Shown in pieces: positions 764 through 55,308 of a stretch of 64,000 nt of DNA; positions within the stretch are counted from its first letter, which is position 1; every line of letters begins with the position of its first letter. Position numbers and translations under genes: made by a program. The notes beneath the pieces were generated by a model. That model made no database searches, had not been told where the DNA came from, and was given only the letters and a program-made list of their open reading frames with translations. This stretch comes from a virus (lineage: Duplodnaviria; Caudoviricetes), in the IMG/VR virus record IMGVR_UViG_2657245143_000002, positions 24,344 to 88,343 of that record. One strand, given 5' to 3'.

Positions 764-2704
764 TTATTCCTTGTTGGCCGCCGCCCTTTTGTGGGCGCAT
801 GAAGGGCAGCCATTCTCCGCGATGCGGTTGGCTATCACCGCAGCCCATGAGCGACCGCAGTATGGGCACAGCCACCAGACCTTGCGCCCGCTGCGTGGCA
901 TCACATCGGCGGGTTTCAGGTCGCCGTTCCTCTCGGAATCCCATTGCAAAGCCAGTTCGGGGTTGATCGTGGCGAGGTCGTTGAAGCCTTGGAGCACCTT
1001 CCGACTGCCGCAGTAGGGACATCCGCCACCCCTGTTGCGGTTGGCTATGGATGCCTGCCACTCGTGACCAAGTTCGTCCTTCCACCAGACCTTGCGATGG
1101 CTGCCCGCCGTGACCTCCGCAGGAGTCAGGACGCCGTTTCTTGTCGGGTGCCACTGGGCGGCGAGCTGCGGATTGCATGTGGCTAGATCGTTGACGCCCT
1201 CGTTGACGACTCGTCCGGCGCAGGCGGGGCAGCCCGTGCTTTTGTCACTTGTGCGGCTGACCACGGTGGCTCGCCACTCATAGCCGCATGCACGGCAGCG
1301 CCACCACACCTTGCGGGAGCTTCCCACGGCCACGCCGGAGGGCGTGAGTTCGCCGTTGCGTTCGGCGTCCCACTCTTGGGCGATGTCGGAGCGTCGGGTA
1401 GCCAGATCGTTGTCCCCGGCGAGGACCTTCCTATTCGCGCAGTATGGGCAACCCGGCTTCAGGCTCGGGTTGGTCCGGGAGTTGATGACCGCCTGCCAGT
1501 GGTGCCCTTTGCCACATGTCCACCAGACGTTGCTGCTTGCGGAGTATGTGAATTGCTCCGGGGTCAGTCCTTCGTTGCGTTCGTAGTCCCATTGCGCGGC
1601 GACATCGGGGCAGCGTGCCGCCAAGGAGTTCTCCCTGCGCATTCGCTCGAACTGCGCGAGGATTTCCGGTTGGTCACGGCGGGTGTCGATGTCCTTGGCG
1701 TCTTCGAGGCCAAGCATGCGCTCCAGCACGGCGATGCACCCGTCAAGGTTCCGCCACTTGTCGTGCTTGACGTCATAGCTGATCGCGTCACCTTCCAGAC
1801 TGTAGGCGTCGGATTCCCTGACGCGGATAAGGCGCACCCCGGCCTTCCTCAGCGAGGCACCCTTCCGTTCGTCGTTGCGTCCTGCGGCCTTGCGGTGGTA
1901 GAAGATTCCGTCATATTCGACCGCCGTGTTCAGCGAGGGCACGTAGGCATCGACCTCCCACACTGTGCCGTCGATCTCTGGTTTCCATTGGTTGATTGTC
2001 CCGGCGTCGATGTCCCGCCGCAGGTAATAGACGACTGCCTGTTCGGGGATGGAGGTGCGGGTGCCCTCCTGACATTTGGGGCATCCGGTTCCTTGGTTTG
2101 TCCTGAGATTCACCGTGGTGCGCCACTCGTGGCCTTTTTCGCAGCGCCACCAGACCTTCCTGATGCTGCCTTTGCCCACCTGACTGGGTGTCAGTGCGCC
2201 GTTGCGGTCGTAATCCCACTCCTTTGCGATGTCCGGGTACAGCGTCGCAAGGTCGTTGAATCCGGGGAGAACCCGTTGGCCGGAGCAATAGGGGCACCCG
2301 TTGCCTTTGTTGTTGCTTCGGGAATTGACGGTCGCCTGCCATTCATGTCCCCGGTCGCATCTCCACCAGACCTTCCGGGCCGTCCCGGCGATGACATCCT
2401 TCGGCGTCAGCCCGTTGTTCTTCGCCGGGTGCCATTGACGCGCAAGCTCCGGGTCCGTCGTCGCCAGATCATTGTATTCGGGGAGCAGCTTTTGGTTGGA
2501 GCAGTAGGGGCATCCGTTGCCTTGCGCCCTTGAGGCCACGGACGCCTCCCACGAGTGTCCCTTGTCGCAGAGCCACCAAGCCTTGCGTTGGGTTCCCAGC
2601 AGAACCTCATTCGGTTTCAGGGTGTTCTTCTCGGCATCCCATTGCTTCGAGAGCTCCGGTCGCCGTGTAGCCAGATCGTTGACACCTCTCGTCAGTCGGC
2701 CCAT
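764..2704 (-). CDS. Zinc-ribbon (treble-clef, DUF4379-like) repeat protein with central PD-(D/E)xK/Vsr-like nuclease domain
   Basis: Seven repeats of NDLAT..P..A..W......KVWW.C..GH.W......R....CP.C; central EVDAYVPSLNTAVEYDGIFYH; start at MGRLTRG after an RBS. Confidence 0.8.
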   Translation of the reverse strand: MGRLTRGVNDLATRRPELSKQWDAEKNTLKPNEVLLGTQRKAWWLCDKGHSWEASVASRAQGNGCPYCSNQKLLPEYNDLATTDPELARQWHPAKNNGLTPKDVIAGTARKVWWRCDRGHEWQATVNSRSNNKGNGCPYCSGQRVLPGFNDLATLYPDIAKEWDYDRNGALTPSQVGKGSIRKVWWRCEKGHEWRTTVNLRTNQGTGCPKCQEGTRTSIPEQAVVYYLRRDIDAGTINQWKPEIDGTVWEVDAYVPSLNTAVEYDGIFYHRKAAGRNDERKGASLRKAGVRLIRVRESDAYSLEGDAISYDVKHDKWRNLDGCIAVLERMLGLEDAKDIDTRRDQPEILAQFERMRRENSLAARCPDVAAQWDYERNEGLTPEQFTYSASSNVWWTCGKGHHWQAVINSRTNPSLKPGCPYCANRKVLAGDNDLATRRSDIAQEWDAERNGELTPSGVAVGSSRKVWWRCRACGYEWRATVVSRTSDKSTGCPACAGRVVNEGVNDLATCNPQLAAQWHPTRNGVLTPAEVTAGSHRKVWWKDELGHEWQASIANRNRGGGCPYCGSRKVLQGFNDLATINPELALQWDSERNGDLKPADVMPRSGRKVWWLCPYCGRSWAAVIANRIAENGCPSCAHKRAAANKE

Positions 2705-2877
2705 TCGCGCACCCTCCTTGTTCTCCATACCATTATGCAGCAAACAGGAACCGGCCCACCAACGCTGACGGGCCGGTTCCTGCCTAGGAGACTTCAGTTA
2801 TTCCGCGTCGGTTCGGAGGGCTCCGGTTCGGCCTCGGCAAGCCTCCTCACCTCGCATGGTCGGCATGGTGCGGATTC

Positions 2878-3207
2878 CTACTCGGCCTCCGTCTCCGGGA
2901 ACTTCCTGAGAATCTGCGCCTTGGTCAGGTTCGGCAGACCGCAGCCCTGACGCAGGAACTCGCGGACGTGCTTCATGGTCGTGGCGCTGTACAGATCGAC
3001 GTTGTGCAGCTCCACGGTCGGCCCCTCTTGGCCGGGATGCTCGGTGATGGTGGCGACCGGCGTCTCGTAGCTCGTCAGGATGAATCCCATGCCGCCGTCC
3101 TTCTGCGGGACCGAGGCGTAGTGCGCCTTGCCGTAGAAGGACCTCTGCGAGAGGAAGTCCGGTCGGAGTTCGTGCGAGCCTGCGTGGTGGTCGAGCGTGT
3201 TGTACAT
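2878..3207 (-). CDS. Small phage-type hypothetical protein
   Basis: SFYGKAH..LTSYETPVA..YSATTMKHVREFLRQ; AAAGGA RBS upstream. Confidence 0.65.
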   Translation of the reverse strand: MYNTLDHHAGSHELRPDFLSQRSFYGKAHYASVPQKDGGMGFILTSYETPVATITEHPGQEGPTVELHNVDLYSATTMKHVREFLRQGCGLPNLTKAQILRKFPETEAE

Positions 3208-3300
3208 CTTCAAGTCCTTTCGACGCCGGACGCATGGGGCGGAGACAGGCTTATGAAAAAAAAGGACTCCCCGAAAGGAGTCCTTGCTGTTCGGCGCGGC

Positions 3301-4515
3301 CTACTTGAGGTGCCAGAGGGTCGGCACGCCGTTGACGCAGGTCTGCAACGCGGTGCCGGTGAACGGGTTGACGTAGCCGTCAACGCTGGGTTCGATGCCG
3401 GACACGGTGTAGGTTCTGCCGCCGACGTTCACCTTGCTGCCGACGCCCAGACCGTAGAGTGCGCTGCCGCCCATGTAGTCGTGCGCCGCGTAGATGGTCT
3501 GGGAGCCGTCCGAAGAGGAGGCGCGTACCCAGCCGCCGGCGTCGATGGCACCTTGGCAGGTGGACGAGTCACCTCTCTGGTAGGTGCAGTTGCGCACGCC
3601 GCTGATGGACGTGATGCCGCTGCCACCGGCGTAGCCGGAGGCGCTGTAGGAGCCGCCACGACCGGAGGTGCCGTAGGAGCTGGCGGACGCGGCTTGGGCG
3701 GCCGCGGCCTCCTGAGCCACGCGGGCGTCATGGGACTTCACCGCGTCGTTCACCTTGTTCTTCGCGTCGTCAAGGGCGGCACGCTTGGCGTCGGCGGTGG
3801 CCCTGTCCGCGGTGTCCTTGACGGAGTTGGCGTCGTCCAGCTTGGCCTTGAGGTCGTTGCGCACGTTCCCGTCATCGACCTTGCCGTTGCTTGAGTCGTA
3901 GACTCCTTGGGCGTCGTTGATGGATTGGGCGAGCGCGGCGCGTGCGTCCTTGTTCAGCTTCTCGGCCTTGGAGGCCTCCACCGCCTTGACGCTCCTGTCC
4001 AAGGCGTCCTTGGCGGTCCTGATGTCGGCCTTGCGTGCCTCGGCGTAGTCGATCACCCTATTGTAGTCGTGCAGGGTGCGCGGTTCCTCCGGGCTGTACG
4101 CCTTGGTCAGTTCCGCGAAGGCGTCGTTGTCGGCGTAGCTCTTCAGGTTGACGAGGGTGTTCGGGTCAGCCACGTCGGTGTCCTTGGTGCCCTCCGCGAG
4201 CTTGTTCGCGGAGTCGATGGCGTCCTTGAGCGCCTTGGAGCTCCTGTTGCTCTCGCCCAGTACCACGGGGTACTCGGCCTTGGCGGCGTTCAGGTTCTCC
4301 ACGCCGTAGGCGGTCGCCACTCCGCCGCCCGCGAGCGCGGCGATGGTCGCCAGCGATGCGGTGGCGGCGATGGCGATGTGCTTGGCGTCGCTGAGGTGGA
4401 GCTTGATCGCGGCGGTGCCGTCGGAGAGGCCTTTGCCGATGGCGTGGCCCTTCTTGGAGAAGGCGTCGTGGGTTCTCTGGGTGCTTTCACCGGGGTTCTT
4501 CCTGAAGTTCTTCAT
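3301..4515 (-). CDS. Membrane-anchored coiled-coil surface protein with compact C-terminal sortase-like domain
   Basis: Hydrophobic anchor, Ala/Lys/Asp-rich helical stalk, Ser/Gly linker, C-terminal YAAHDY...ALQTC. Confidence 0.6.
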   Translation of the reverse strand: MKNFRKNPGESTQRTHDAFSKKGHAIGKGLSDGTAAIKLHLSDAKHIAIAATASLATIAALAGGGVATAYGVENLNAAKAEYPVVLGESNRSSKALKDAIDSANKLAEGTKDTDVADPNTLVNLKSYADNDAFAELTKAYSPEEPRTLHDYNRVIDYAEARKADIRTAKDALDRSVKAVEASKAEKLNKDARAALAQSINDAQGVYDSSNGKVDDGNVRNDLKAKLDDANSVKDTADRATADAKRAALDDAKNKVNDAVKSHDARVAQEAAAAQAASASSYGTSGRGGSYSASGYAGGSGITSISGVRNCTYQRGDSSTCQGAIDAGGWVRASSSDGSQTIYAAHDYMGGSALYGLGVGSKVNVGGRTYTVSGIEPSVDGYVNPFTGTALQTCVNGVPTLWHLK

Positions 4516-4859
4516 GTCGTGTCCTTTTGTTTTGTCGTTTCGATCTTGCGGGGACTTCATGGCGCGGATTCCTCTCCGCTTGGTTGGTGCCCTTGGCCGC
4601 TTGACCTTGTGGCATGGTCATGGTGCGGAAAACGGAAACCGGAGGTCTTCGCCGCCGAAGCCTCCGGTTTTTTGGTGCGCATCAGTGCGGGATGCTGGGC
4701 ACGTAGGGGTTGTCCTCGCCGTCGAGCCGTCGGATGCCTGTGACCGGCGACGGTTCGTCCACGATGTCCTCGGTGACGGGCGCGTACACCATCGCGTCGG
4801 CGCGGGGGCTCCACTGGTCGAAGCGGTGCCCGTCGGTGCCGGGAATCCTCATGGTGGCC

Positions 4860-5246
4860 CTACTCGAATCGTACGGTGCGCTTGGTCATCGGGTCGCCCG
4901 CGAGTTCGAGCAGGCGTTGGAGCTTCGCGTTGCAGTCGGTGCTCAGCACCTCCGCCTTGTACGGGCGTCGCTCCGCGATGGCCTTGTTGAGGATTCCGGC
5001 GACCTGCTCGCGGGGAACGATGTCGTCCTGCACATGGGGGAGAGTCTGGTGCCACGCCTTCGGGCTGAGGCTCACGGTGTGCCATGCCTCGAAGTCGTCC
5101 GTCTTCACGATGCACAGCGCGTCGGTCCACACCGAGAGGTCGTGCGCCTCGCCCACCCTGTACCACTGCGGGTCCTCGGCCGCGAGCTCCCCTGCGAGTC
5201 TGTCGAACTCGGCCTGCTTGGTGATGTTGTTGTCTCCCACGATCAT
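4860..5246 (-). CDS. Hypothetical protein
   Basis: ORF with AAGGAA RBS (MIVGDNN...), co-directional cluster. Confidence 0.55.
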   Translation of the reverse strand: MIVGDNNITKQAEFDRLAGELAAEDPQWYRVGEAHDLSVWTDALCIVKTDDFEAWHTVSLSPKAWHQTLPHVQDDIVPREQVAGILNKAIAERRPYKAEVLSTDCNAKLQRLLELAGDPMTKRTVRFE

Positions 5247-5260
5247 GTCTCGGTTCCTTT

Positions 5261-5602
5261 CTAAAAGAGTGTGGTCTGGGTGTCGCCGTGCTCGTGCCTG
5301 CCGGTCCATGCGGCGGCGAGCACCTTCCACGGCTTGTAGAGCGGGACGCCGCACACGGTGGCGTCCGGCTTGGCGAGCGGGGTCGGGTCCTTGACGAGCC
5401 TCGACAGCTCGGCCTCGGTCAGCGGCGTGCCCAGCTGCCGCATCAGCGGCAGCTTCGTGATAAGCGCGTGCAGTCTGATGATGCTGATTCCGTCGTCGGT
5501 GATGACGAAGAAACCGTGCGCCGCGAGCTGCGGTATGAACGCCTCCGGCACGTCGAGCAGCCTCGCCGCCTGTTCGTTTCCTATGTATCCCGGTCTTGTC
5601 AT
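5261..5602 (-). CDS. Small hypothetical protein, possible HTH DNA-binding
   Basis: MTRPGYIGNEQAARLLDVP resembles an excisionase-type HTH start; AAGGAG RBS. Confidence 0.5.
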   Translation of the reverse strand: MTRPGYIGNEQAARLLDVPEAFIPQLAAHGFFVITDDGISIIRLHALITKLPLMRQLGTPLTEAELSRLVKDPTPLAKPDATVCGVPLYKPWKVLAAAWTGRHEHGDTQTTLF

Positions 5603-5648
5603 GTCCCGCTCCTTTCGTCGAGCTGGGCGGAGCATGGTGCGGAAAATC

Positions 5649-5984
5649 TCAGACGAAACGGAGCGGGCTCCTCTCCGATTTCTTGGCGAGGCGCAGGGCC
5701 TTCTGGAAGAGCTGGTTGGTGTTCGTGCGGAACGCGGTCGCCTTGACGGGTTCGTGGCGTTCGATTGCCTCGTTGAGTCTCTGCGCGACGATTGGCCCGC
5801 GCGTCCTCGATTCGCCGTCGGCGTCGAGCCTGAGCCATCTGCCGTTGTCGTTGTAAGCGCCGAAGCCCTTGGTCTCGACGTCGCAGAGCGCGGCGGTCGA
5901 GACGGCGAGGGTGCCACCATCCCATCCGAAGAGTGCGGGGTCTATGGCGTTGAGTCGTTCGGCCAGCCTGTCGAAGTCGTTCAA
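5649..5984 (-). CDS. Hypothetical protein
   Basis: TTG start with strong purine-rich RBS and motif A upstream. Confidence 0.55.
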   Translation of the reverse strand: MNDFDRLAERLNAIDPALFGWDGGTLAVSTAALCDVETKGFGAYNDNGRWLRLDADGESRTRGPIVAQRLNEAIERHEPVKATAFRTNTNQLFQKALRLAKKSERSPLRFV

Positions 5985-6079
5985 GTCGTTTCCTTCCTTC
6001 CTTGGTCGCGCCGTGCTTGGCGCGGATATGGAAAGGCCCGCAGGCTTGCGCGGCCTGCGGGCCTTCGGTTCGTGTTGTC

Positions 6080-6877
6080 TCAGTCGAGCTGGTCGAGGAC
6101 GCTCAGGTCAATGACCGGCAGCAGCTTGGAGACGTCGAGCGACACGTCGATGTCGTTGCCCTTGCCGTCGCCCACGTTCCCGGCCGCCTCCGGGTCAACG
6201 GCGGCGAGCACCTTCCACACGGCGCGGACGCGGTTGCGTTCCTTCATCGCCATCGACATGACCTTGATGCCCAGTGCGGCGGGGTCGGACTCGGCCTTCA
6301 GCGACTTGGCGTCGGCCACGGCCTTCTTCAGGCCGGTGTCGCCCATGTAGGCCGCGACGATCTGCGCGTCCTCGTCCTTGCCCAGATAGTTGGACAGGAA
6401 CCCGCGCAGGCGCTCGTCGGAGACGGTCTTGTACGCGGCGATGATCTTGCGGATTTCCGCGAGGGTCGGGCCGCTCGGCTTCTTGGCCTTCGGCTTCGCC
6501 TCGGAATCGGCATCGGACGCCTTGGCCTCGGTGCCGGAGAAGTCGGCGTCGAGTTCGGGCTGGACCGCCCCGCCGTCGCCGGTGGCTTCGTCGGTCGTCT
6601 CCACCGGGGCATCGGCGTCGCCATTGCCTTCGGTCTCCTCAGCCGGGGCGTCGGTGTTGCCGTCGCCGGCGGTCTCCTCGGCCGGGGCGTCGGTCGTCGC
6701 GTTCTCGTCGCCGTCGATGGCCGGGGCCTCCACCTGCATGCCGTCGGTCGAAGCGCCCGCGTCGGGGTCGAGGAAGTTGCCGTTGTTGTAGCCGTTGTAG
6801 CCGTAGCCGTTGTCGTTGTCGTTGTTGTAGCTGCTGTCGCCGTAGCCACCCCAGCCGTTGTTGTATTCGTCAGCCAT
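6080..6877 (-). CDS. Acidic low-complexity protein (N/G/Y-rich N-terminus, DAPAEET repeats, helical C-terminal domain)
   Basis: ORF translation; codon bias consistent with neighbours. Confidence 0.7.
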   Translation of the reverse strand: MADEYNNGWGGYGDSSYNNDNDNGYGYNGYNNGNFLDPDAGASTDGMQVEAPAIDGDENATTDAPAEETAGDGNTDAPAEETEGNGDADAPVETTDEATGDGGAVQPELDADFSGTEAKASDADSEAKPKAKKPSGPTLAEIRKIIAAYKTVSDERLRGFLSNYLGKDEDAQIVAAYMGDTGLKKAVADAKSLKAESDPAALGIKVMSMAMKERNRVRAVWKVLAAVDPEAAGNVGDGKGNDIDVSLDVSKLLPVIDLSVLDQLD

Positions 6878-6938
6878 GTCGCTGCCTTCCGTTCGTTCTT
6901 CGGGCCGGTCGTCCGGCCCTTCGTGGAAGGCTGTGCGG

Positions 6939-7396
6939 TCACGCGAGTTCGTTGAGCGACCTCCACGGCCTGACGGGTTCGGGGCGGAAACCGTTCGACC
7001 ATGCGAGCGACATGACCCAAGCGCTCAGCCTGCGTCCGTCGCTCCTCCCGTCGAGCAGCCAGTAGACGGTGAGCGTGCCCATCTTCTCCTCCGGCAATCC
7101 AAGCCAGCGCATCATGCGCCGCAGCGTGGTGACCGCCATGCGGTACGTCGCCCCGGTCAGCGCCTCCTGCAACTGCCAGAGCTTCATCTCGCCCACGGCG
7201 CGGTTCGTCGGCGCTTCGGAGAGGACCCAAGTCAGCGCCTCGCCGCCACGTCCGGTGTTGACGAGCTCCTGACGTGGAAGATGGCCTCGACCCGTTCGCG
7301 CTTGAGCCGTTCCCTCGCCTCATTCATCTTGGCGATGTGCTCCGGCGTCGCCTGAGCACGGCCCCACTCGGCCCGCTTCTCCTGAGTCCACGCCAT
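6939..7396 (-). CDS. Actinobacterial integration host factor (mIHF/H2TH)-like protein, frameshift near 7272
   Basis: Joining two frames gives MAWTQEKRAE..ARERLKRE..GGEALTWVLSEAPTNRAVGEMKLWQLQEALTG, resembling mIHF GGTNLTQVLKDAESDEVLGKMKVSALLEAL; ATG overlaps the parA stop (TGATG). Confidence 0.55.
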
Positions 7397-8216
7397 CAGC
7401 GCCTCCATCCGCGCTTGGCCGACGGCCTCGGCCTTGTCCTCGGCTTCGGCTTGACGCCACGCACCCAAGCCCCCGCGCGTGCGAGCCATGCGGGCTCGTG
7501 GTCGTCGGGGTATCCGGCTTCCGTTCGGCCAGCAGCCTTCCGCTCGCCGGGGTCCAACGGTCGCTGCCCAAGTACCTCCCGAGTCCTTCGAGACGCGACC
7601 GCCATCGTTCGGGCGACGTGTCCAAGGATTCCGCGCCGGGCTGCACGGTCGCCACCACGCCGATGCCGTTCGGGCTGACGCCCGCCCCGACCAGCGCGTC
7701 CAAGGCGTTGCGCCCGTCGTTCAGCGACGAGCCGAGCAGTCCGAGCCTGAACACGACGCCGCATGAGCCGGCTTCGGAACCGTGGAGCAGCCAAGGCAGC
7801 ATCACGCCTCCGGCCACGGTCATGTTGTCGGCCAGAGCCTCCGCGTCGAAACGGTCGGTGTCCACCACAACATAGTCCGCGAGACCGGCAAGCTCCCCGA
7901 TGGAGCGGCCCAAGAGATCGAGCGATTTCGGGTTGTACGAGATCGGACCGGGCAACACCGCGTACCCCGCGCCGTTCGGGAGACGGTCGGGCGTGACGAT
8001 GGCGTTCACCATGCGCTCGCGGGCGTCGCCGCCGACGAGCATGTTCTCCAAGCAGTCGTCGTCGGCCAGTCCGAAGTATTCGCGCTGTGATTGCTGCGTG
8101 AGGTTGCCGTCCACGAGCACGGTGCCGCCGAATCTCGATAGGTGCTGGGCCAGCGCCCTCGCGCCGCTCGATTTGGCGATGCCGCCCGACCCTCCGCTGG
8201 AAAATACGACCTTCAT
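7396..8216 (-). CDS. parA: ParA/MinD-family ATPase, frameshift near 7516
   Basis: N-terminal deviant Walker A SGGSGGIAKSS, VLVDGNLTQ, DYVVVDT; likely true C-terminus (..PAWLARAG..KRGWRR*) lies in another frame ending at 7396. Confidence 0.7.
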
Positions 8217-8384
8217 AACACTGCCTTCCGATTCCGAGGCCTGAAGGCCCCTCGGAGGAGCCTGTGCGGGGCCGGGTGCGAAAATCCACGATTATAGGGG
8301 TCCGTGGCCGGTGGCGGGCGGGTGGTCGGAAAGGGCCAAAATCGTGGTTTTCGTCATGGCGTGGCGGCCCGCTTGGAGATGGCC

Positions 8385-8582
8385 TTTGTATTTGTGATTG
8401 TTGGTTTGTTGTTGTCTTTGTTTTTGTGTTTGTTGGTCTGTCTGTTGATTGATTGTTGATTTGTTGTGTTTGTGTTTTTTGTTGTTGGCTGAGCGAAGAG
8501 AAGGCGGGAAGAGAGGGGAGGAGGGAGTCGAGAGGGGAGAAAAAGGAGGAGAGGTGAGGAGAGGTGCGGGAGGGGAGGAAGG
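8385..8582. repeat. Bipartite low-complexity tract: T/G-rich (8385-8488) then G/A-rich (8491-8582)
   Basis: Directly visible strand-asymmetric composition upstream of parA. Confidence 0.85.
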
Positions 8583-8680
8583 TCGAATCGTCCGGCTCCG
8601 CCCTTGGAGGCCGACGACCCGCGATGCGGGAGACGCTTCGCTGTGAAAAAGAGGCGGGCCGAATGACCCGCCTCCATCGT

Positions 8681-9145
8681 TCAGTCCTCGCGCCACGCGC
8701 ACGCGAGCCACCACCCGGTGTCGTCGTACATGTCGTCCCCATCCGGGTCGGGGTTGCTCCACACGCCGGTGACCGGCATCGACCTGATGGTCGCCGCGTC
8801 GGCCTTCCCTTCGAGGAAGTCCTCGACCGGCGTCAGGTCCTCCCACCGGTTGACGTTCATGGCATTGCGGACCAGATAGGCGTCCGGCTGCTCGCCGTCG
8901 TAGAAGCACAGGCCGTCGAAGTCGCAGCCCTCCTCGGTCACGGGCACCTCCGCGAAGATGCCTCCCATGTCGGCCTCTTCGAGTTCGTACCCGTTGCCGC
9001 CGCGCGTGATGGTGACGCCGCCGTAGTACGACTCGATCTCCTTGGCCGCGTCCAACGCCTCGGCGGCGGTCTCGTACACCCCGCCCAGTTTTTCATCGAG
9101 GTAGGTCTGGAACCTCGCCGCGTTCTCCGCCGTCGCATCGCCCAT
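8681..9145 (-). CDS. Acidic hypothetical protein, paralogous to a domain of the 40411-41769 protein
   Basis: PVEDFLEGKADAATIR vs PVRDFLDGKADSLTIR; AAGGAG RBS; motif A upstream. Confidence 0.7.
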   Translation of the reverse strand: MGDATAENAARFQTYLDEKLGGVYETAAEALDAAKEIESYYGGVTITRGGNGYELEEADMGGIFAEVPVTEEGCDFDGLCFYDGEQPDAYLVRNAMNVNRWEDLTPVEDFLEGKADAATIRSMPVTGVWSNPDPDGDDMYDDTGWWLACAWRED

Positions 9146-9189
9146 ATCGTCTCCTTTGCTTGCCTGCATATCGCATGGCGCGGATTCGC

Positions 9190-10245
9190 TCACAGCGTCC
9201 TCGCCGCCTGAGTGCCGAGCCGGCACACCAGACCCCAGAGCGTCATGCCATGCCTCGCCGCCAAGTTCTCCATGCGCCACTCAAGCTCCGCGTCGTCCCT
9301 CACGCCGCTCTTCGTTGACTGGTCGGCCAGATACATCTTGGCGACGGTCTCCCTGTCGTCGTCCTCCGGCAGCGCGGCCATGAGGTAGCGCAGCGTCCCG
9401 CCGTCGATGGTGTCGGTGAGCTTGGCGAGCATCAGCGCCGTCGCGCGTTCCTCTCCCATCGTCGCGTCCAGCCCGGTCTCGTAGTCGTTGGAGTCAACGA
9501 ACCTGTCGAGTGACCGGTGCCAGTAGCCCGCCTCGCGCAGGTCGTCGGCGGTCACGCGACCCAGAGACAGGAGCTCGCGGCGCTCGCGTCCCATCGGCCT
9601 CGGCACGACGATGTTCGAGTAGCCGTCGAGCAGCGAGCGCGGCGACTCCTTGGATTCCTTGGTCTCGTCAAGCAGGTTGCCGCCGTCCTCGGTGTCGTAC
9701 TTGGAGATCGGCTCGTCCAGACTGCGCAGCGTGCGGGAAGCCACCGAGCGGGTGATGGCCTTGGAGATGCCACGGCACCACGCGCTCACGCTGGTTCCGT
9801 TGAGTGGCTTCCAGAACGAGTTGCCCTTCCACTGCGACACCTTGCTGTCGCCGGTCGAGATGCACAGCACCTTCTCGATGACGCGGCCCTTGACGGCGGG
9901 GACGACGGTGTGCCAGCCGTTCGGCACCCTGCTCGCCACGGTTTCCTCGATCAGTCCGAACGAGTCGAGGAGACCGGCGACCAGCTTGCGTTTCTCCGAG
10001 CCGGGCCGCAGGTCGTCGTCGGTCCATGTGAACGAGGCGACGAACCGGTCGAGCTCCCTCGTGTCCTCGAACGGCACATGCCTCGGCCTCTCCGTCGAGT
10101 GGCGTGTGCCGTCCTCGCCTTGGACCCTGAGCATGGCCTTCCTGACGATCTCGGCGTACTGCCGTGTCTTGCCAAGCTCCTTGGCGCTCAGCCCGGCGGG
10201 TATGTCCGGGTCCCGTTCGATGATCGTGTTCCTGTGGTTAGCCAT
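9190..10245 (-). CDS. Divergent sigma70-like protein (putative)
   Basis: FWKPLNGTSVSAWCRGISKAITRSVA resembles region 2.3-2.4 (FDP..G..FSTYA.WWIRQAITRAIA); RSLDEPI...DGGNLLD resembles region 3.2. Confidence 0.5.
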   Translation of the reverse strand: MANHRNTIIERDPDIPAGLSAKELGKTRQYAEIVRKAMLRVQGEDGTRHSTERPRHVPFEDTRELDRFVASFTWTDDDLRPGSEKRKLVAGLLDSFGLIEETVASRVPNGWHTVVPAVKGRVIEKVLCISTGDSKVSQWKGNSFWKPLNGTSVSAWCRGISKAITRSVASRTLRSLDEPISKYDTEDGGNLLDETKESKESPRSLLDGYSNIVVPRPMGRERRELLSLGRVTADDLREAGYWHRSLDRFVDSNDYETGLDATMGEERATALMLAKLTDTIDGGTLRYLMAALPEDDDRETVAKMYLADQSTKSGVRDDAELEWRMENLAARHGMTLWGLVCRLGTQAARTL

Positions 10246-10301
10246 CGCGCACCAGCCTTTCGTCTCCGAAATTTCACGCGCGGCATGGTGCGGATTCCGG
10301 T

Positions 10302-11120
10302 TCAGATGCCGAGCGTGTTCAGCGCCCTCAGCGCGTCGTCCGCGAACCGTTCGGGGCAGCCGGTCGGCGGCTTCGCGGTGGGGTCCTTCCTTCGGCGTTC
10401 GCGCCAAGCCTTGAACGCCTCGGATTGGGCCGCGATGGCCTCGACCGTCGGCGCGTTCCTCGGGCCGATGGCGTCCTCCGGTCCGATGCGGACCACACCC
10501 ACGGAAGGCTTCCGCCCCTTGACGGGTTCGCCGGTGGCCCAGCGCCATGCGAGGCCGTAGGCGGTCGTTCCCTTCTTGATCGCCCTGCTGATTCCGCTCG
10601 CCGCCGCGCAGGGCCGGCCTTCCTCCCTCAGTGTTTCGACCGCCTCGGCCATGCAACGGTAACGGCGGACGACGCCCTCGCGCGAGACGGACTCGACCGC
10701 GCCCTTGGTGGTCGGTCCGGTCGTCCACACCGTGTTCGACCTCGACCAGCGGGAGCCGGGGTCGAGCCTCGCAAGCCTCGCGTCGTCCGAGTAGCCGTGC
10801 CGGTATGCGTCGTCGCGGAACGAGTCGAAGGACAGCCAGCGCTCCTCGATGCCCTTCGGCTCGTGCAGCAGCCTGCGCCACAGCCGGTGCAGCCGGTCGC
10901 CCGACATGTTCGACTCGCCGCCCTGCGACCTGTGCGCGATGCGGTCGCCGCAGGTCCTCCTGCGCCCGGCGCGGAGTTCGCTCGCGGTCGCACGGCAGGT
11001 TCCGCCGCAGTCGCACCAGAGCACGTACTTCCTGCGGTCGGGGTCCCAGCCATGCACGGTCAGGGTGCCGAAGCGCTCGCCGTCCCTCAGTGGTCTTCCG
11101 CTTGGCCTTCCGTCGTCCAT
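10302..11120 (-). CDS. Phage-type degenerate HNH homing-endonuclease-like protein with NUMOD1-like domain
   Basis: GERFGTLTV..WCDCG..SELRAG..TCG, ERWLSFDSF..LARLDP..WSRSNTVW, C-terminal MAEAV..ISRAIK..TAYGLAWRW. Confidence 0.6.
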   Translation of the reverse strand: MDDGRPSGRPLRDGERFGTLTVHGWDPDRRKYVLWCDCGGTCRATASELRAGRRRTCGDRIAHRSQGGESNMSGDRLHRLWRRLLHEPKGIEERWLSFDSFRDDAYRHGYSDDARLARLDPGSRWSRSNTVWTTGPTTKGAVESVSREGVVRRYRCMAEAVETLREEGRPCAAASGISRAIKKGTTAYGLAWRWATGEPVKGRKPSVGVVRIGPEDAIGPRNAPTVEAIAAQSEAFKAWRERRRKDPTAKPPTGCPERFADDALRALNTLGI

Positions 11121-11207
11121 GCCATCGCCTTTCGTGAGTCGTTTTGAATCGTCCGTTAACACGGGCTGTGCGCGGCATGGCGCGGAAAGGCACAGCCTCA
11201 TCTGACA

Positions 11208-13583
11208 ATGCTTCGATTGAAAGGCGGTGCGCCGTTGCGTTGGTTCACCTTTGACAGGACGCCGGGCGAGAAGATGGACCCGGACGAGTTTCAGAACAGG
11301 GCGTTGCAGGCCGCGACGCTCGCGGGCTTGGTCGATTCGCCGTCGCCGGGGGAGTGGCTGCGCAACATCAACGTCCCCGCGATGATGGTCGTGGCGGAGC
11401 GCCATGACGGCTCGGACAGGCTGCTGGTCTGCTTCCCGCAGTGCGAGGGCGACGAGGCGCTTGAGACGAGGACTGCCCGCGAGCTTGGGGGCGCGGTGCA
11501 GGGCGTGCCGCGCGAGACCGAGCCGCCGTCGAGCATCGGGCGCGGCGACCTGCGGGTCGTCCACAGCCACGTCAAGCGCAACGCCCGATTGTCGCGGGCG
11601 AGTCAGGACGGCGCGGACGTCACCAAGCTGACCGCGCCGGAGGACGGCTTCGTGTGCCTCACCGCGCGTCGTCTGGGCCGTTGGGAGACCGAGCGCGTGA
11701 GGTCTTGGGTCAGCGACGAGACGAACTCGCAGGCCGACGGCAACAAGCTGCGCAAGCCGGGCGTCGCCGCGGTGAGGGTCACGGCGGGCTCGCCGTCCTT
11801 GGCCGACGCCCGCACCGCATGCCAGCAGGGCATGGCGTCGCTGCGCACCGGGCTCGACCACACCGTGTCGTGGAAGTCGCGGCCCGGACTGGGGCTCGTG
11901 CTTCTGTCGGGAGCGCTTTTCACCGCCGTGTTGACGGCATGGCTCATCTACGATCTTCCCATCTGGCCGGCGTTCCCGCTGCTGGCGCTGCTGGTCTACT
12001 CCGTCCTCCGTCTCCTGCGGCTGCGCTCCGACCTGCCCGGCCACGAGATGTTCCGCACGCCACGCCACTACTGGTGGGCCGCGAGGAAGCGCACGGCGGA
12101 CAGCGACGACTTCAAGTCGAGGTTCGGCGGCGACGACCGGGACGAGGGCGCACCGGGCCGCAGGCTGGTGCGGGCGTATGCGTTGCAGCGTTCGAGCCTG
12201 CCGGTGCCGCCGGGAACCTTGGCGGCGCTGTGCGCACCGGAGAGGGGCAAGGCCATGAGCAAATCCGGCGCGACGTTCGCCGCCGACGGCTTCCGTGATG
12301 CCGACGGTCCCCTGATCGGCTACGACGCGGCGAACAACCCGGTGCGATTGAGGAGGGATACGCTCTACGGCGGCGTGGCGATAGTGGGCGAGGCCGGAAG
12401 CGGCAAGACGAACCTGACCGACCTGCTCCAGTCTTGGCTCTGGTCGCACGAGGAGGACAACCAGATGCTCAGCTTCGAGGTGAAGACCGCGAACCGCGTG
12501 CCGCTGCTGAGGGAGCTGTCGCACGGCAGGCTGAAGGTCATAGACATGATGGGCCTGCCGGACGAGCCGGTCATCGACATGCTCGGCCCCGGCGACATCG
12601 AGACGCGGGCGCAGCGATTCGCGGATTTGGTTCGCTTCGCCTATCCGGCGGGTTCCGTCATGGGCGCTTCGCTCGCCCAGTTGCATGACGCGGCGCTTGT
12701 CGGCCAGTGGTTCGTCGCCCAGCCGAAGGCCCGCGAATACGCCGCCAAGGTCGGCATCACGCTCGACGCAGGCGACGGCTGGCTGACCATCGCGCACATC
12801 GTGCTGCTCGGACGCGGCGTGCAGCAGGCGACGATGCTCCTCAAGGCGTCCGACGCCCTGCGGCCGCCGGCGGAGATTCGGGACGCCTACGCCCGTCTTC
12901 TTGGCGAGCGCCGTGGCACCGGCAAGCTGGCGATGTCGGACACGCAGTTGATGAACAAGCTCTCCGCTCCGCTGAACAAGGTGAGCGATCTTCTCAAGGC
13001 ATCGCCCGTGTTCGACGTGAGGCGTCCGAAGGTCACTTGGGACTTTGTGCTCCAGCGTCGCCTCGACATCGCCATCGTGCTGTCCGTCTCGACCCGTGGC
13101 GTTTCCATGCCGGCAGGACTGCCGGACATCCTCGGCCCGATGCTGCTCAAGTCTCTGAGGGAGTCCGTCGAGCGGGTCTGCGGTGGCTGGCAGCGCGATG
13201 GCAGGTCGCTGACCGTGGTGTGCGACGAGCTGTCCATGCTCTCCGCCGACGATGGCTCCGTGGTCGCTTGGATGCGCGAGAAGGGCCGAGAGTTCGGCGT
13301 GGAATGCCTGTTCGCCACTCAGAATCCACGCCAGCTCAACGACGAGGTGCGCAACAGCTTCCTCGGCTACATGACCGTGGCGAGCTTCCTGATCGGCAAC
13401 CCGCAGATTTCCGACGAGGTTGCCGCCGTCCTCGATGACGGCACCGGCGAGTGGACGGGCGCTCGCGTGAGGTCGATAGCCAAGTACCATGTCGCGCTGA
13501 AGACGCGCGGCAAGGACGGCCCGCTGCCGACCGCCGTGGTCAGGGTTCCGTTGGCGAAGTCGAAGTCGGGCCTTACGGCGTGA
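11208..13583 (+). CDS. VirD4/TraD-like type IV coupling ATPase
   Basis: Two TM segments, Walker A GEAGSGKT, Walker B VVCDE, KGREFG..LFATQ. Confidence 0.7.
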   Translation: MLRLKGGAPLRWFTFDRTPGEKMDPDEFQNRALQAATLAGLVDSPSPGEWLRNINVPAMMVVAERHDGSDRLLVCFPQCEGDEALETRTARELGGAVQGVPRETEPPSSIGRGDLRVVHSHVKRNARLSRASQDGADVTKLTAPEDGFVCLTARRLGRWETERVRSWVSDETNSQADGNKLRKPGVAAVRVTAGSPSLADARTACQQGMASLRTGLDHTVSWKSRPGLGLVLLSGALFTAVLTAWLIYDLPIWPAFPLLALLVYSVLRLLRLRSDLPGHEMFRTPRHYWWAARKRTADSDDFKSRFGGDDRDEGAPGRRLVRAYALQRSSLPVPPGTLAALCAPERGKAMSKSGATFAADGFRDADGPLIGYDAANNPVRLRRDTLYGGVAIVGEAGSGKTNLTDLLQSWLWSHEEDNQMLSFEVKTANRVPLLRELSHGRLKVIDMMGLPDEPVIDMLGPGDIETRAQRFADLVRFAYPAGSVMGASLAQLHDAALVGQWFVAQPKAREYAAKVGITLDAGDGWLTIAHIVLLGRGVQQATMLLKASDALRPPAEIRDAYARLLGERRGTGKLAMSDTQLMNKLSAPLNKVSDLLKASPVFDVRRPKVTWDFVLQRRLDIAIVLSVSTRGVSMPAGLPDILGPMLLKSLRESVERVCGGWQRDGRSLTVVCDELSMLSADDGSVVAWMREKGREFGVECLFATQNPRQLNDEVRNSFLGYMTVASFLIGNPQISDEVAAVLDDGTGEWTGARVRSIAKYHVALKTRGKDGPLPTAVVRVPLAKSKSGLTA

Positions 13584-13616
13584 GCTCCGTTCGATAGGGC
13601 GTTAACAATCATCAAC

Positions 13617-13649
13617 GAAGCCCACGGCCTGTGAAAGGTCGTGGGCTTC
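13617..13649. terminator. Intrinsic terminator between convergent genes
   Basis: GAAGCCCACGGCCT/AGGTCGTGGGCTTC stem. Confidence 0.6.
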
Positions 13650-13656
13650 TCTTGTC

Positions 13657-14301
13657 TCAGTGTTGCTTCCGGCTCTTCGAGATTCTGCGGACCCTTTCGG
13701 TCATCGCAGCCATACCGGTTCCGCCGATGTCCAGATCGGCCATCTCCATGAGCAGTTCGGCGGGCGTGCTCCCGTTGCCGATGACGGCTTGGCGCACGTC
13801 CGCGTCCCTGTCCATCGAAAGCGCCCTCAGCGACCTGACCGGGGTGGAGGGGTGTCCCGCCACCGCCTCCCTGATGTCCGAGCGGTCGTCCCTCGCCAGT
13901 TCGGCCAGCCGCTCGGCGGGCAGACGCGGGTTGCGGGCGGCGCGGAGCCGCACAAGCGGGCTGGCGTCGCCCCCTAGACGGTCCAGCGTCTCGACGGGTG
14001 TGCGCATGTTGTCGGCCACGGCCCAGCGCACCTGCGGTTCGGTGTCCTCGGCCAGCCGGACCAGCATCTCGTTGGGGGTGCGGATGTTCCCCGCCACGGC
14101 CCATCGCACCGCCGGGTCGGTGTCGTGCGCGAGCTTCGTCAGCACTTCGGTGGCCGTGCGTGGATTCAGGGCCACCAGCCCCCTGACGCCGCCCGCGCCT
14201 TCGTCGGCCAGCGCCGCCAGCAGCTCCGGGTCGGTCGTCCCCTCACCCGCCAGAGTCTCAAGTTGCTCCTCGGTCAGGTTCCTCAGTTTCTCATTAACCA
14301 T
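13657..14301 (-). CDS. Leucine-rich-repeat-variant (LRV/HEAT-like) repeat protein
   Basis: About 7 copies of L..LA.D....VR.AVA.N..TP. Confidence 0.8.
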   Translation of the reverse strand: MVNEKLRNLTEEQLETLAGEGTTDPELLAALADEGAGGVRGLVALNPRTATEVLTKLAHDTDPAVRWAVAGNIRTPNEMLVRLAEDTEPQVRWAVADNMRTPVETLDRLGGDASPLVRLRAARNPRLPAERLAELARDDRSDIREAVAGHPSTPVRSLRALSMDRDADVRQAVIGNGSTPAELLMEMADLDIGGTGMAAMTERVRRISKSRKQH

Positions 14302-14419
14302 GTCGGCCTCCTAGATCGTACGGGTGCGGCATGGCGCGGATTTCCGTGACCGGTCTTGGCGGGCGTGCTAACAACCGGCACTAGACTGGAGGAAACCCGA
14401 CGAGGACGAGGGGAGCATC

Positions 14420-15369
14420 ATGGGACTGCTTGATTCACTGAGGGGCTTGCTTGGTCGTGGAGCCGCCGCACCGGAAAGCAACCGACCGACGAACATCGAC
14501 CCTTGGCGAACACCTGCGAGCGCGGGCGGTGGAAACCCGTCCCTGAGCGTCACGCTGCGGCTGCCGGACTGCGTGCAGCTCAGCGGCACCACGACGACCT
14601 GCAAGGACGCCATGCTGGGATTCGCCCGGCGTCACGGCATCGACCGGCGGGGCGGTTGCCGCGAGACCGTGGGCCGGCTCCGGCACGAATCGGACAACCC
14701 CAAGAGCGACAAGGCCATCGCCGTGGTGGTCGAGGGTGAGCGCGTCGGCTATCTTCCGGGCGCGTACTTAGAGGGCTTCCGTCTGATCGAGGGTGCCGCC
14801 AAGGAGGTGCCCGTGCAAATCTTCACGGCCCTGCTCCCGAAGGCCTCCGCTGCGAGGCGTGGGTCTGGCTGGGCGACGGGACGCCTGAGTGGCTGTGGTC
14901 GGAGACGAACCATCCGCCCATGTCTCCGCAGGAGAAGGCGGCGGCCAACCACCGGGACAACGTGGAGCTCGTGCGCGAGGGTCTGGCCGAGGGCGGCGGA
15001 CGCGCCGAGGAGTTCAGGCGCGGCACGGTCAACGGCGTGCATTATCTGGAGACGGTCGAACCGATCAAGCAGCTCAAGCGCGAGGGCAGGCTGGACGAGG
15101 CGTTGGCGCTGTGCATGCAATCGGTGCAGGCCGCCGAGAACGAGGCGGTCGCGGAGCGGGCCGAGGGCTTGGGGCGCGAGCCTGCGCCGTGGTACACGGA
15201 GCAGGCGGCCATCGTGCTGCGCAAGCTTGGTCGGCTTGACGAGGAGGAGGCACTGCTGCGCCGGTATCTCGACCATGTGCCGCCGGAGAGCATGGGCAAC
15301 ACCGGGCCGAGGGACATCAGGGAGAGGCTTGACAAGCTGGTGGCGAAGCGGGCGAAGGCCGGCAAGTGA
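14420..15369 (+). CDS. HIRAN-like domain protein with TPR-like C-terminus, frameshift near 14842
   Basis: LRHESDNPKSDKAIAVVVEGERVGYLP (HIRAN-like); adding one G at about 14842 joins it to ORF 14920-15369. Confidence 0.6.
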
Positions 15370-23884: not shown

Positions 23885-24005
23885 AATAAGCCCTCCAAAA
23901 TTCCAGTTGCCGTATGGCGCGGATTTCGCACGCACGGCTGTCCGGGAAAAACGAAAGGGCCGGCACCCCGTGAAGAGGTGCCGGCCCAAGACCGGTCGGT
24001 TCGTC

Positions 24006-24766: not shown

Positions 24767-24868
24767 ATTCGCTCCTTTGTGTAGTGCGTTTTCGTTCCAT
24801 CGTGTTCCGATGGCTCCACCGACCGGACGGTCGTTGTGCCGCCGGCATGGTGCGGATTTTCGCCCCGT

Positions 24869-35169: not shown

Positions 35170-35750
35170 CAAACACGGCCGTGCCACCTCCGTGCCAGCC
35201 CTGTGCCACCCGAAAACGTTGAAATTCCGCCATTCTTGATTTTCGGCCGAAAACGGCCGTGCCACCGGCCCCGGTCGTCCTCGACCGGAGGGCGAAAATG
35301 ACGAAAACCCTTGTGGGAGTAGGGCTGAGGGGTTGTATAAGTAAGTAATAATATATATGAAATATCTATTATTTATATATATATTTGGCACACTTGGCAC
35401 GGCACAACGCATATTTCATCCCCTCGCGCCTATACGCTCCGCCGATTTCATTCCTGAAAATCGCGTCCGTGTAAGACACCCTTCAAAAGCCGTGCCACCC
35501 GTGCCACCGTGCCAGCCCTACTCCCACAAGGGTTTTCGGCATCGACCGGGAAACAGACTGTGCCAGTCGTGCCGGTGTGAAATCACCCCAAAAATCGCCT
35601 CTGAGCCCTACTCCCGCTTGGGTTTTCATGGGGTGGCACAGCGAAAAACGGCGCATGAGCAAAACTGCGAGGCGACTTAACAAATCGTTAACTCTACCTG
35701 TAAAAACAGCTCATGCGATTTTTGGGAAAGTCGAAAACCGTGCCACCCTC
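35170..35750. other. Candidate replication origin: GTGCCA iterons, AT-rich core and 26-bp inverted repeat
   Basis: More than 10 GTGCCA/TGGCAC copies; AT-rich 35335-35385; perfect IR 35302-35327 / 35513-35538; no credible CDS. Confidence 0.65.
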
Positions 35751-35893
35751 CTCCGCTCGCGGGGCCCCGCCCTCCCACATGCGGCACCGGACGGCTTGGC
35801 TACGCATTTTCGGGCCGAAACCTCCCCAGTTTTTCTGCCACTTCGGGTTTTCCGCGCCATGACGTCCATAGAAGCAGAAGGAAAGGAACAGCC

Positions 35894-36844: not shown

Positions 36845-37019
36845 AAGTCGGCAGCCGACATCGGCATCGAAGCCAAGGCGACCGGGAACGGTCGCCTTCT
36901 TCGTTTCGGGCACCCCTTGGTTCATTCCAAGGGTTCTCTCTTTTTTTGCCTTGGCGATTCCGCACCATGCCGCCTCCGAAGGACAGTCCCCTGTGGACCT
37001 ATTTTTCAGGAGGTAGCCT

Positions 37020-47954: not shown

Positions 47955-48030
47955 CGAAAAGTGGTCGAAATCGACCACTTTAATGTTTCCGCCCCATGCC
48001 GCCGGCAGATCACTACAGGAAGGCGGCAAC

Positions 48031-49410: not shown

Positions 49411-49495
49411 GGAGGATTGGCAGAGCAGACTAATGCACCCGTCCCGAAAGCGGGCAGGGGTCAGACCCTCGCGCGTGCAAATCGCGCATCCTCCG
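49411..49495 (+). tRNA. tRNA-Ser(CGA)
   Basis: GGAGGAT/ATCCTCC acceptor, CCCGT-CC CGA AA-GCGGG, long variable arm, atypical T-loop TGCAAAT. Confidence 0.8.
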
Positions 49496-49514
49496 CTCGG
49501 ATAATTGAAGATCG

Positions 49515-49596
49515 GGTGGGTTGGCCCAGCGGCGACGGCAGGAGCCTGTAAATCTCCGACACTGACACATCGCGGGTTCGAGTCCCGCACCCACCA
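49515..49596 (+). tRNA. tRNA-Tyr(GTA)
   Basis: GGTGGGT/ACCCACC acceptor, CT GTA AA loop, GTTCGAGTC T-arm. Confidence 0.85.
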
Positions 49597-49599
49597 CGA

Positions 49600-49707
49600 G
49601 GACGGAATGGACAGTCCCCGGCACGCAAGTAGTTCCCGAATGGGAGTAAGGCAGGTGGCCCGTGCGCGGGCGCTCGGCCGAGAAGACCGAAAGCGCCGGT
49701 TCCGTCC
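49600..49707 (+). ncRNA. Unassigned structured RNA of about 108 nt
   Basis: Terminal helix GGACGGAA/TTCCGTCC enclosing GCACG/CGTGC, TTCCC/GGGAG and GGCGC/GCGCC helices; no cloverleaf. Confidence 0.45.
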
Positions 49708-49734
49708 GAGGCCGGTCGGCGCACAGACCGGATT

Positions 49735-49808: not shown

Positions 49809-49811
49809 CGG

Positions 49812-52725: not shown

Positions 52726-52908
52726 ATGGTCTCCGTTCGTGGTGCTCCGGTTGCTGGAAAAGCAGGAAAATCTCACGCATACATCCGGTTTCCACCGGTA
52801 ATTGACCCTGCAATCGGTCATCGCACCCCAATTAAAACCGAAAATACGGCAATCCGCGCCATGCCCTCCATAGAAGGTCAGACCGAATGTCACGAAAGGA
52901 AGACCACG

Positions 52909-55173: not shown

Positions 55174-55308
55174 AATCCGCCTTTCGACGGAGCCCGCATG
55201 GCGCGGACTCCACCGTGGGCTGTCCGGCAGGCCGTTCGCACAGTCCATGCCGAAAGGTCTGCCGGACCGTCTGTGCGCGTCAGCGCCTTCCGGCAGGAGT
55301 CAACCGCT

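Follow-up and report, generated by a model that had tools for sequence, protein, structure and literature searches.

The stretch of DNA analyzed here (the window, 64,000 nt) comprises bases 24344-88343 of an 88,343-base IMG/VR record, IMGVR_UViG_2657245143_000002 (G000), which is labelled a provirus and has a CheckV completeness of 41. On the minus strand, positions 9190-10245 of the window carry P0001, a gene with an uninterrupted frame of 351 codons that ends in TGA and has no internal stop. The gene lies near that of a coupling-protein-like ATPase of a type IV secretion system (T4SS), and a copy of a dispersed sequence box, termed motif A, is found immediately upstream. On comparative data, the protein family to which P0001 belongs is a good candidate for the reader of such boxes. 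The P0001 frame scores as coding (GC content 0.90 at third and 0.47 at second codon positions, by our own third-position/frame score). GAAAGG precedes its ATG, which is separated by 56 nt from the stop codon of the next gene upstream. The original prediction, made from the letters of the window, had called this frame a divergent sigma-70-like protein. The frame does translate to 351 amino acids plus TGA, and the three peptide segments quoted in that prediction are all present in the translation.

An identical protein is recorded on 72 contigs, the longest of 575,074 bases, and a 351-aa member of the 90% cluster of P0001 is named 'hypothetical protein [Bifidobacterium bifidum]'. When 1.84 billion representative proteins are searched exhaustively with phmmer, 28 relatives appear at E<=0.001, with 19 at E<=1e-10 and one at E<=1e-30. 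The named members are all 'hypothetical protein', and are found in B. bifidum, B. crudilactis, B. adolescentis, B. longum and Bombiscardovia coagulans. The family set comprises 29 members, and its alignment is termed A1. A profile built from A1 matches 8 of 236 Bifidobacteriaceae genomes, with a single copy in each; in 401 Actinomycetota genomes it finds G002, itself a carrier of the family, plus two chance-level matches (E 0.0045 and, in the unpublished genome G384, E 0.00998). No match to P0001 is present among plasmids, phages and viral contigs, nor any plasmid match to the window DNA at 8000-14000. A homologue search with P0001 or A1 as query returns the close cluster plus one known member only. 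To judge from these searches, P0001 is a real gene that is unclassifiable by family, and its relatives form a small orphan family found only in Bifidobacteriaceae. P0064 (641 aa), considered as a fusion, was rejected as a mis-called long frame.

Six residues are invariant in A1: E124, W145, P147, W156, P217 and G240. The family displays a Trp-rich block with the consensus WNxxxLWDPxxxTSFCGWxRxL…NAxRVL, followed by an acidic stretch, a VPRPxG motif, GxWxxSLD and a C-terminal …EWxVxxRLGTxAARL. By eye, this C-terminus matches the A5/G9/V15 pattern of a helix-turn-helix (HTH), as A…G…(E)W.V..RLGT.AARL, and may form such a motif. Proteins of the sister elements are 25-52% identical to each other, two near-identical pairs being left out of this range, and 27-32% identical to P0001.

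Motif A has the consensus wwTCCGCrCCATGC (extended, wwTCCGCrCCATGCcg), and the copy upstream of P0001 reads TCCGCACCATGC. This copy and the dispersed character of the motif had been noted in the original prediction, and both are confirmed; the motif is, in addition, gene-oriented and element-specific. When at most one mismatch is allowed, the 88-kb record holds 26 matches, whereas 50 shuffled versions average 4.2 and never exceed 9; 21 of the 26 fall in the window. Twenty copies, picked by eye, precede start codons, and every one of these points at the downstream gene. Their ends are 22-54 nt (mostly 27-31 nt) from the start, and a Shine-Dalgarno sequence lies in the gap. Several copies follow a hairpin within a few bases, and no second conserved block is seen upstream of the motif in the 20 gene-preceding copies. 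By rough automatic gene calls, which leave 20% of the record intergenic, 17 of the 26 are intergenic, and 14 of these 17 have a same-strand start within 120 nt. Three consecutive genes (an HNH-endonuclease-like gene, P0001 and the next gene) each have a copy of their own.

Motif A is regarded as private to the element, since its exact 13-mer occurs eight times in the 88-kb record and at most four times in any of the 236 Bifidobacteriaceae genomes, 82 of which have at least one copy. Its position suggests a compact promoter. Matches to sigma-70-type promoters in positions 2500-15000 number one, against 0.6 in shuffles, and that one is not at a motif site. The ATG within the motif was considered as a general start codon and rejected: 11 of the 18 ATG-bearing sites open frames of less than 65 aa. 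The frame at the P0001 site is one of 32 aa, six of the 18 open at least 124 aa and one runs off the record. Counts of k-mers and an expectation-maximization (EM) motif finder were dominated by GC-rich coding repeats and iterons; EM on G000 gave acidic-codon repeats, a sign that some coding DNA has been missed by the gene calls and counted as 'intergenic'. The gene for the anaerobic ribonucleotide reductase NrdD would belong to the element's regulon, since it has an upstream motif A copy, by which it may be driven. NrdD itself (943 aa) displays an insertion between two matched parts.

Sister elements were compared as stretches of 17-40 kb around the family gene in eight genomes. Motif A is absent from them, its 13-mer being present in 0-1 copies in G001, G090, G097 and G214. 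They display another box. As TATGCGTC it is 6- to 15-fold over shuffles in G001, G090, G097, G002 and G214, and in G001 all 11 copies lie in the 13% of the sequence called intergenic. In its other reading, GACGCATA, with at most one mismatch, the same box stands 7-11 nt (usually 9-10) ahead of an ATG or GTG starting a frame of at least 80 aa in 56 cases in the eight stretches, versus 15 backwards. Genome-wide, GACGCATA-N8-10-ATG is found 27 times in G090, 20 in G097, 16 in G002, 16 in G001 and 9 in G214; the backward counts are 1, 0, 1, 4 and 4, respectively. These occurrences gather around the family gene: 23 of 27 within 162 kb in G090, 18 of 20 within 168 kb in G097, 10 of 16 within 110 kb in G002, 7 of 16 within 45 kb in G001 and 2 of 9 at the gene in G214. 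The spread of the array (C1:1.36-1.52 Mb in G090 and C1:1.08-1.24 Mb in G097) suggests that these two genomes hold integrated islands of ∼160 kb, the size of free megaplasmids.

The family gene is itself preceded by the box. In six of the eight sisters (G001, G214, G057, G002, G069 and G077) its ATG has GACGCATA or GACGCATC 8-11 nt upstream; in G090 and G097 the frame is open upstream and the start is not placeable. A conserved -35 block is seen upstream of neither motif A nor GACGCATA. The GACGCATA box is probably a -10-type element of leaderless genes, since a spacing of 7-11 nt leaves no room for a leader. The TATGCGTCC box was considered as an operator with inverted pairs and rejected, as there is a fixed ATG 7-11 nt off on the other side; given this fixed ATG, the inverted pairs would be ordinary divergent promoters.

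The protein has changed together with the box once. The most conserved block of the family is FWKP…SVSAWCRG in the window versus LWDP…TS(F/V)CGW(V/L)RR in seven of the eight sisters, with an intermediate form in G214 (TTVAGWARG). The family gene and a private box are found together in nine of nine elements.

The megaplasmid pMP7017 offers a contrast. Genes common to it and the element include those for the coupling ATPase, a VirB4-like ATPase and the lysozyme, yet it has no P0001-family match (E<=1), no Sigma70_r2 and, in its first 100 kb, no GACGCATA architecture. Seven open reading frames that neighbor its coupling ATPase were considered as hidden family members and rejected (hmmsearch E>=0.28 for six and no hit for the seventh; hhalign P>=0.1). 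The promoters of pMP7017 are reported to be canonical, TTGACA-N17-TATAAT, and a plasmid-specific 34-bp motif that overlaps the -10 is present at 19 of them (PMC10832533). A separate word in pMP7017, TATGTCCAC, has 12 copies versus none backwards; its genes lie on the opposite side and have Shine-Dalgarno leaders, and homology with the sister box is not claimed. The available portions of the literature hold no description of the P0001 family or of the motif A and GACGCATA boxes. Family and private box in nine of nine elements, neither in pMP7017, and one joint change of the two: judged by sequence comparison, this is the pattern expected of a reader.

A DNA-binding protein with such a distribution might also be a repressor, a master switch that acts on boxes overlapping core promoters and silences the integrated element, host RNA polymerase reading the promoters by itself. 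A box that overlaps or abuts a core promoter is a classic repressor site, and one before the factor's own gene fits negative autoregulation. The 34-bp motif over the -10 of pMP7017 is, moreover, taken by the authors of the study on that plasmid to be a transcription-factor site (PMC10832533). Against this, motif A sites have no recognisable sigma-70-type -35/-10, and GACGCATA at a fixed 7-11 nt from the start looks less like an operator than like an element for positioning. In addition, the boxes are directional and not palindromic, every gene-preceding copy pointing at its gene. Repression is considered improbable.

The neighborhood of the family gene raises a different possibility. In seven of the eight sister elements it adjoins the coupling-ATPase gene; in L002 and L003 it lies directly downstream of it on the same strand, and in the window the pair diverges. 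This linkage makes a DNA-transfer accessory that works with the coupling ATPase, for example a protein binding the origin of transfer (oriT) or relaxosome, or a substrate adaptor, a serious rival, although on balance a rather unlikely one. The family would then be transcribed from the boxes and not read them. The invariant Trp, Pro, Gly, Glu and Arg residues are those expected of a binding protein, and in Firmicute-type elements the gene after the coupling protein is commonly a relaxase. P0001 is, however, not a relaxase of the HUH or Rep_trans type, because the invariant and near-invariant columns of A1 contain neither Tyr nor His, and those enzymes have an invariant catalytic Tyr and a His-rich metal site. 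Neither P0001 nor any of the 29 members matches a relaxase family, or any other transfer family, in Pfam or NCBIfam. Furthermore, G214 keeps the family gene, with a divergent box pair, and has no coupling ATPase within 40 kb of it. A transfer role also leaves the reader of the boxes unexplained.

The original prediction had likened segments of P0001 to sigma regions 2.3-2.4, 3.2 and 4.1. Searches with P0001 against Pfam, NCBIfam and PDB chains give nothing at E<=10, nor does PHROGs at E<=0.01. Across the family, no member of the 29 matches a sigma model of Pfam, NCBIfam or PHROGs at E<=1, and each family listed in these scans is matched by one member only. The A1 profile gives 14 matches in PDB sequences at E<=10, of which the best is UCH-L1 (0.056) and none is a sigma factor. 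Record-wide there is no match to the sigma-2 domain (Sigma70_r2, PF04542, at E<=1; TIGR02937 at E<=10) or to the sigma-4 domain (PF08281 at E<=1; PF04545 at E<=10), and the sigma-4 domain is not found among the 29 members. A T7-type RNA polymerase model has no match in the record, but it matched no control genome either and is hence uninformative.

In a profile-profile comparison (hhalign), A1 was aligned with 22 extracytoplasmic function (ECF) sigma sequences from genomes of the phylum, unpublished genomes being left out. The Trp block of the family aligns with region 2 at a score of 19.2 (P 0.064), and the controls score higher (20.8 for the reversed ECF alignment and 20.2 for the reversed family). 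The N- and C-terminal halves of the family give the same outcome as the whole, with no gain over controls. Because the score is no better than that of the reversed controls, the likeness to sigma regions is, by these tests, not above chance. Sigma70_r2 matches number two per genome in the two Bifidobacterium genomes checked, from which bifidobacteria would appear to have few sigma factors. The sigma tally included the unpublished genomes G003 and G020, whose loci L012 and L015 were left out.

The sole positive sign comes from the ESM Atlas. Its model of P0001 has ten structural-neighbor rows, every one a cluster in which 99-100% of members carry Sigma70_r2, and they align over 103-156 residues within residues 10-264 of P0001. 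The model has a predicted local distance difference test score (pLDDT) of 0.50 and a predicted template modelling score (pTM) of 0.34, and the template modelling (TM) scores span 0.21-0.31 (by query) and 0.30-0.60 (by row). Among Pfam-named clusters, the one closest to P0001 in language-model features is also Sigma70_r2 (score 0.94, 136 shared features); the same holds for P0005 (score 0.93), where the family is on 17% of the cluster members. The neighbor list is counted as one lead to a possible sigma factor.

These neighbors, all sigma or HTH-type, also bear on the prospect that P0001 has some other function (structural, anti-defence or establishment) and is a mere conserved member of the element, the boxes being read by host RNA polymerase or by another element protein. 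Most element proteins have no family assignment in the library scans, so another of them may be the reader, and P0001 is a putative DNA-binding protein. Set against the Atlas neighbors and the joint presence of family and private box in nine of nine elements, both being absent from pMP7017, such a function is thought unlikely.

The reading preferred here, tentatively and at less than even confidence, is that P0001 is the element's own promoter-specificity factor, possibly sigma-like. P0001 would bind DNA and guide host RNA polymerase to promoter boxes peculiar to the element, among them the one before its own gene. In the window's element the box read would be motif A, 22-54 nt before starts led by a Shine-Dalgarno sequence; in the sister elements it would be G(G)ACGCATA, located 7-11 nt upstream of the start codon. 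Two modes of action are conceivable, that of an activator sitting on the core promoter and that of a highly divergent, sigma-like subunit; the latter, like a sigma fold in general, is held to be doubtful. We infer all three components of this proposal, namely the boxes as promoters, P0001 as their reader and the sigma fold. A reader that is not recognised as such is plausible because the 88-kb record has no recognisable sigma factor or single-subunit RNA polymerase. From the original proposal of an element-encoded alternative sigma factor, the element context, motif A and a candidate reader are retained; the sigma identity finds no support in the sequence and profile tests, which are negative or equal to controls.

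In its most far-reaching form, which we consider unlikely as a whole, an unrecognised and extremely divergent sigma-like family, restricted to the giant conjugative islands of Bifidobacterium, would supply host RNA polymerase with a promoter code private to the island. For most islands the code would consist of a -10-only box 8-10 nt before leaderless starts (GGACGCATA-N9-ATG), and in the B. bifidum-type element it would have been re-tuned to TCCGCrCCATGC. If this is true, a conjugative element runs nearly all of its transcription units on its own sigma, as does a lytic phage.

Several points weigh against P0001 as the reader. The co-change of box and protein is one independent contrast, and there are very few contrasts overall. 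The link between P0001 and the boxes is an indirect one, and the boxes are putative promoters, named so from their position. A transfer function would explain the conserved place beside the coupling ATPase no less well, and the box before the family gene may reflect mere regulon membership. A dispersed 34-bp motif is present in pMP7017 (PMC10832533) without the P0001 family, so such motifs need no member of it. With respect to sigma identity, the sequence tests are all negative, hhalign being equal to the reversed controls. The Atlas itself marks all ten neighbors 'under the bar: name no family', and a TM score below 0.5 usually means another fold.

P0001 is in the same size class as ECF (group 4) sigma-70 factors and, by eye, has a similar layout, with a Trp/Arg-rich block, an acidic linker and an HTH-like C-terminal end. 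Its gene is preceded by a presumed target site, as are those of autoregulated ECF sigmas, and its Atlas neighbors, from a low-confidence model, are Sigma70_r2 clusters. Unlike ECF sigmas, it has no match to Sigma70_r2, r4, r4_2 or TIGR02937 and an hhalign score no better than reversed. The element boxes lack a conserved -35 block upstream, and no anti-sigma gene is recognised near P0001 in general library scans. The late sigma factor of the phage T4 gp55 type is very divergent and reads a single -10-type box without a -35. Like its targets, the element boxes are single blocks, and their distance from the gene is fixed; the host element of P0001, however, is conjugative and not a lytic phage. 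Tn916 Orf7 and pBS32 SigN are element-encoded and switch on the element's own genes, and are recognisable members of the sigma-70 family, which by sequence the P0001 family is not. The published pMP7017 regulon is alike in having a dispersed element-specific motif at many promoters of a related conjugative class, with a coupling ATPase 27-29% identical. It differs in that its motif overlaps a canonical -10 with a -35 and precedes genes with Shine-Dalgarno leaders, and in having neither the P0001 family nor, in the first 100 kb, GACGCATA-N-ATG.

The element itself is read as an integrated conjugative element of the megaplasmid class. Its coupling ATPase is 27.7-29% identical (tblastn) to genes annotated 'AAA family ATPase' or 'Yip1 family protein' in six Bifidobacterium megaplasmids, pMP7017 included; plasmids of Curtobacterium and Arthrobacter encode homologues with 28-31% identity that are annotated 'type IV secretory system conjugative DNA transfer family protein'. 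Neither the coupling ATPase nor P0001 has a phage match. The left part of the record encodes a 925-aa AAA_10/FtsK-type (VirB4-like) ATPase plus a DnaN homologue. Elsewhere the record encodes a protein with Phage_lysozyme2 and CHAP domains, an Enc34-type single-stranded DNA-binding protein, a weak DUF3854 match, an LPXTG pilin, NrdD and a PIF1/RecD-like helicase. Hallmarks of conjugative elements are thus present in the T4SS coupling protein, the VirB4-like ATPase and the cell-wall hydrolase. Together with the LPXTG pilins, these agree with the conjugative context that was originally proposed. Among ∼50 record proteins scanned with Pfam, NCBIfam or PHROGs there is no capsid, portal or terminase, and no transcription factor. 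The provirus label looks wrong, because the record displays T4SS-type ATPases, pilins and origin-like iterons without a capsid, portal or terminase family.

The HNH-like gene separates P0001 from the coupling ATPase only in the window's element and has no match in any sister stretch (tblastn matrix). P0001 and the ATPase gene diverge in the window, and the pair is arranged in tandem in L002 and L003, which points to an insertion accompanied by an inversion. The ParA-like gene and an 85-aa gene at 6939-7196 are syntenic with the family gene, and homologues adjoin it in L002 and L003. Positions of these genes and of the motif A copies are collected in Table 1.

Table 1. Motif A copies and neighboring genes in the window
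Feature	Position	Strand	Remarks
Motif A	2863..2874	-	
Motif A	3232..3243	-	Immediately after terminator-like hairpin 3262-3285
Motif A, …ATGA variant	4557..4568	-	
Motif A, …ATGA variant	4618..4629	-	After hairpin
Motif A	5632..5643	-	
Motif A, …CCAAGC variant	6015..6026	-	After hairpin
ParA-like gene	7320..8216	-	Weak NCBIfam EpsG/ParA-type P-loop match, E 3.3e-05
Motif A	9173..9184	-	Just past P0001 stop; 27 nt before ATG of next gene (8681-about 9145)
Motif A (TCCGCACCATGC)	10283..10294	-	37 nt upstream of P0001 ATG, in 56-nt gap
HNH-endonuclease-like gene	10302..11201	-	Between P0001 and coupling ATPase; PHROG phrog_374, E 5.4e-11; no Pfam match; real start probably near 11121
Motif A	11175..11186	-	Upstream of HNH-like gene, in divergent region common to coupling ATPase
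T4SS coupling-protein-like ATPase gene	11208..13583	+	791 aa as listed; tblastn; alternative start 11274 possible
Motif A	14329..14340	-	Upstream of LRV/HEAT-repeat gene 13657-14301
Motif A, …CCATAC variant	23912..23923	-	Upstream of 1069-aa gene
Motif A	24845..24856	-	
Motif A	35851..35862	+	
Motif A	36959..36970	+	49 nt upstream of anaerobic ribonucleotide reductase gene 37020-39851
Motif A	47988..47999	+	Upstream of PIF1/RecD-like helicase gene
Motif A	52853..52864	+	
Motif A	55196..55207	-	

Other features of the element are of separate interest. A long non-coding stretch at 8250-8680, between the ParA-like gene and the next gene, is A/C-rich and of low complexity and could be a partition site or a small RNA; contigs of one metatranscriptome run cover 7185-8611. 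The metatranscriptome runs, four of which were compared with the window, consist of contigs that carry neither 5' ends nor strand. Eight tRNA genes (Ser, Tyr, Val, Phe, Gln, Trp, Arg and Thr) are found by ARAGORN at 49411-50561, five of them above the Rfam threshold; a 'tmRNA*' call at 49866-50470 that overlaps this cluster has no Rfam support. A Transposase-2 RNA (RF03015, 81 bits) at 57254-57322 on the minus strand lies at the end of a 434-aa gene (57238-58542, minus strand). G097 holds a copy of this gene with 73% identity, and in pMP7017 a 32% match to it falls on the TnpB gene. This region is probably an IS605/TnpB unit plus its guide RNA. Positions 764-2743 (minus strand) encode a 659-aa protein with seven DUF4379 treble-clef zinc-finger repeats (E 1.4e-140), and pMP7017 likewise carries 'zinc ribbon domain-containing' proteins. 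Outside the window, bases 1580-2692 of G000 encode a beta sliding clamp of DNA polymerase III belonging to the element itself; matches of 25-26% to it are present in G097, G090 and G001.

Two non-coding regions are origin-like, one at 35170-35750 of the window and one outside it, at 13150-13750 of G000. In both, iterons of the CCGTGCCACC type are clustered, and an AT-rich TATATATA…AATAATAG stretch is accompanied by a conserved segment resembling CTACTCCCAyAAGGGTTT. In sister elements a similar CTACTGCCGATTGGGG or CTACTCCCATAAGGG segment lies beside a pair of inverted iteron clusters, the iteron words being TCTTCACCGAC in G069 and G077, TGTATGCAT in G090, GCACTGAGGTCG in G002 and GGTCGCAGC in G057. 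As enriched words, TCTTCACCGAC and TGTATGCAT were considered as promoter motifs and rejected as clustered iterons.

Bifidobacteria, key commensals of the gut, carry large conjugative islands and megaplasmids for whose activation no mechanism is known; the motif regulon of pMP7017 is likewise without a known reader (PMC10832533). The comparative result provides a testable regulon map, in which element-specific boxes stand at nearly every transcription unit and are confined to the islands, and in which one orphan gene always accompanies them. If P0001 does read the boxes, it would provide a means of controlling conjugation in these bacteria, together with an orthogonal pair of promoter and factor for engineering them. 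If it is sigma-like, P0001 would extend the sigma family past what sequence models detect.

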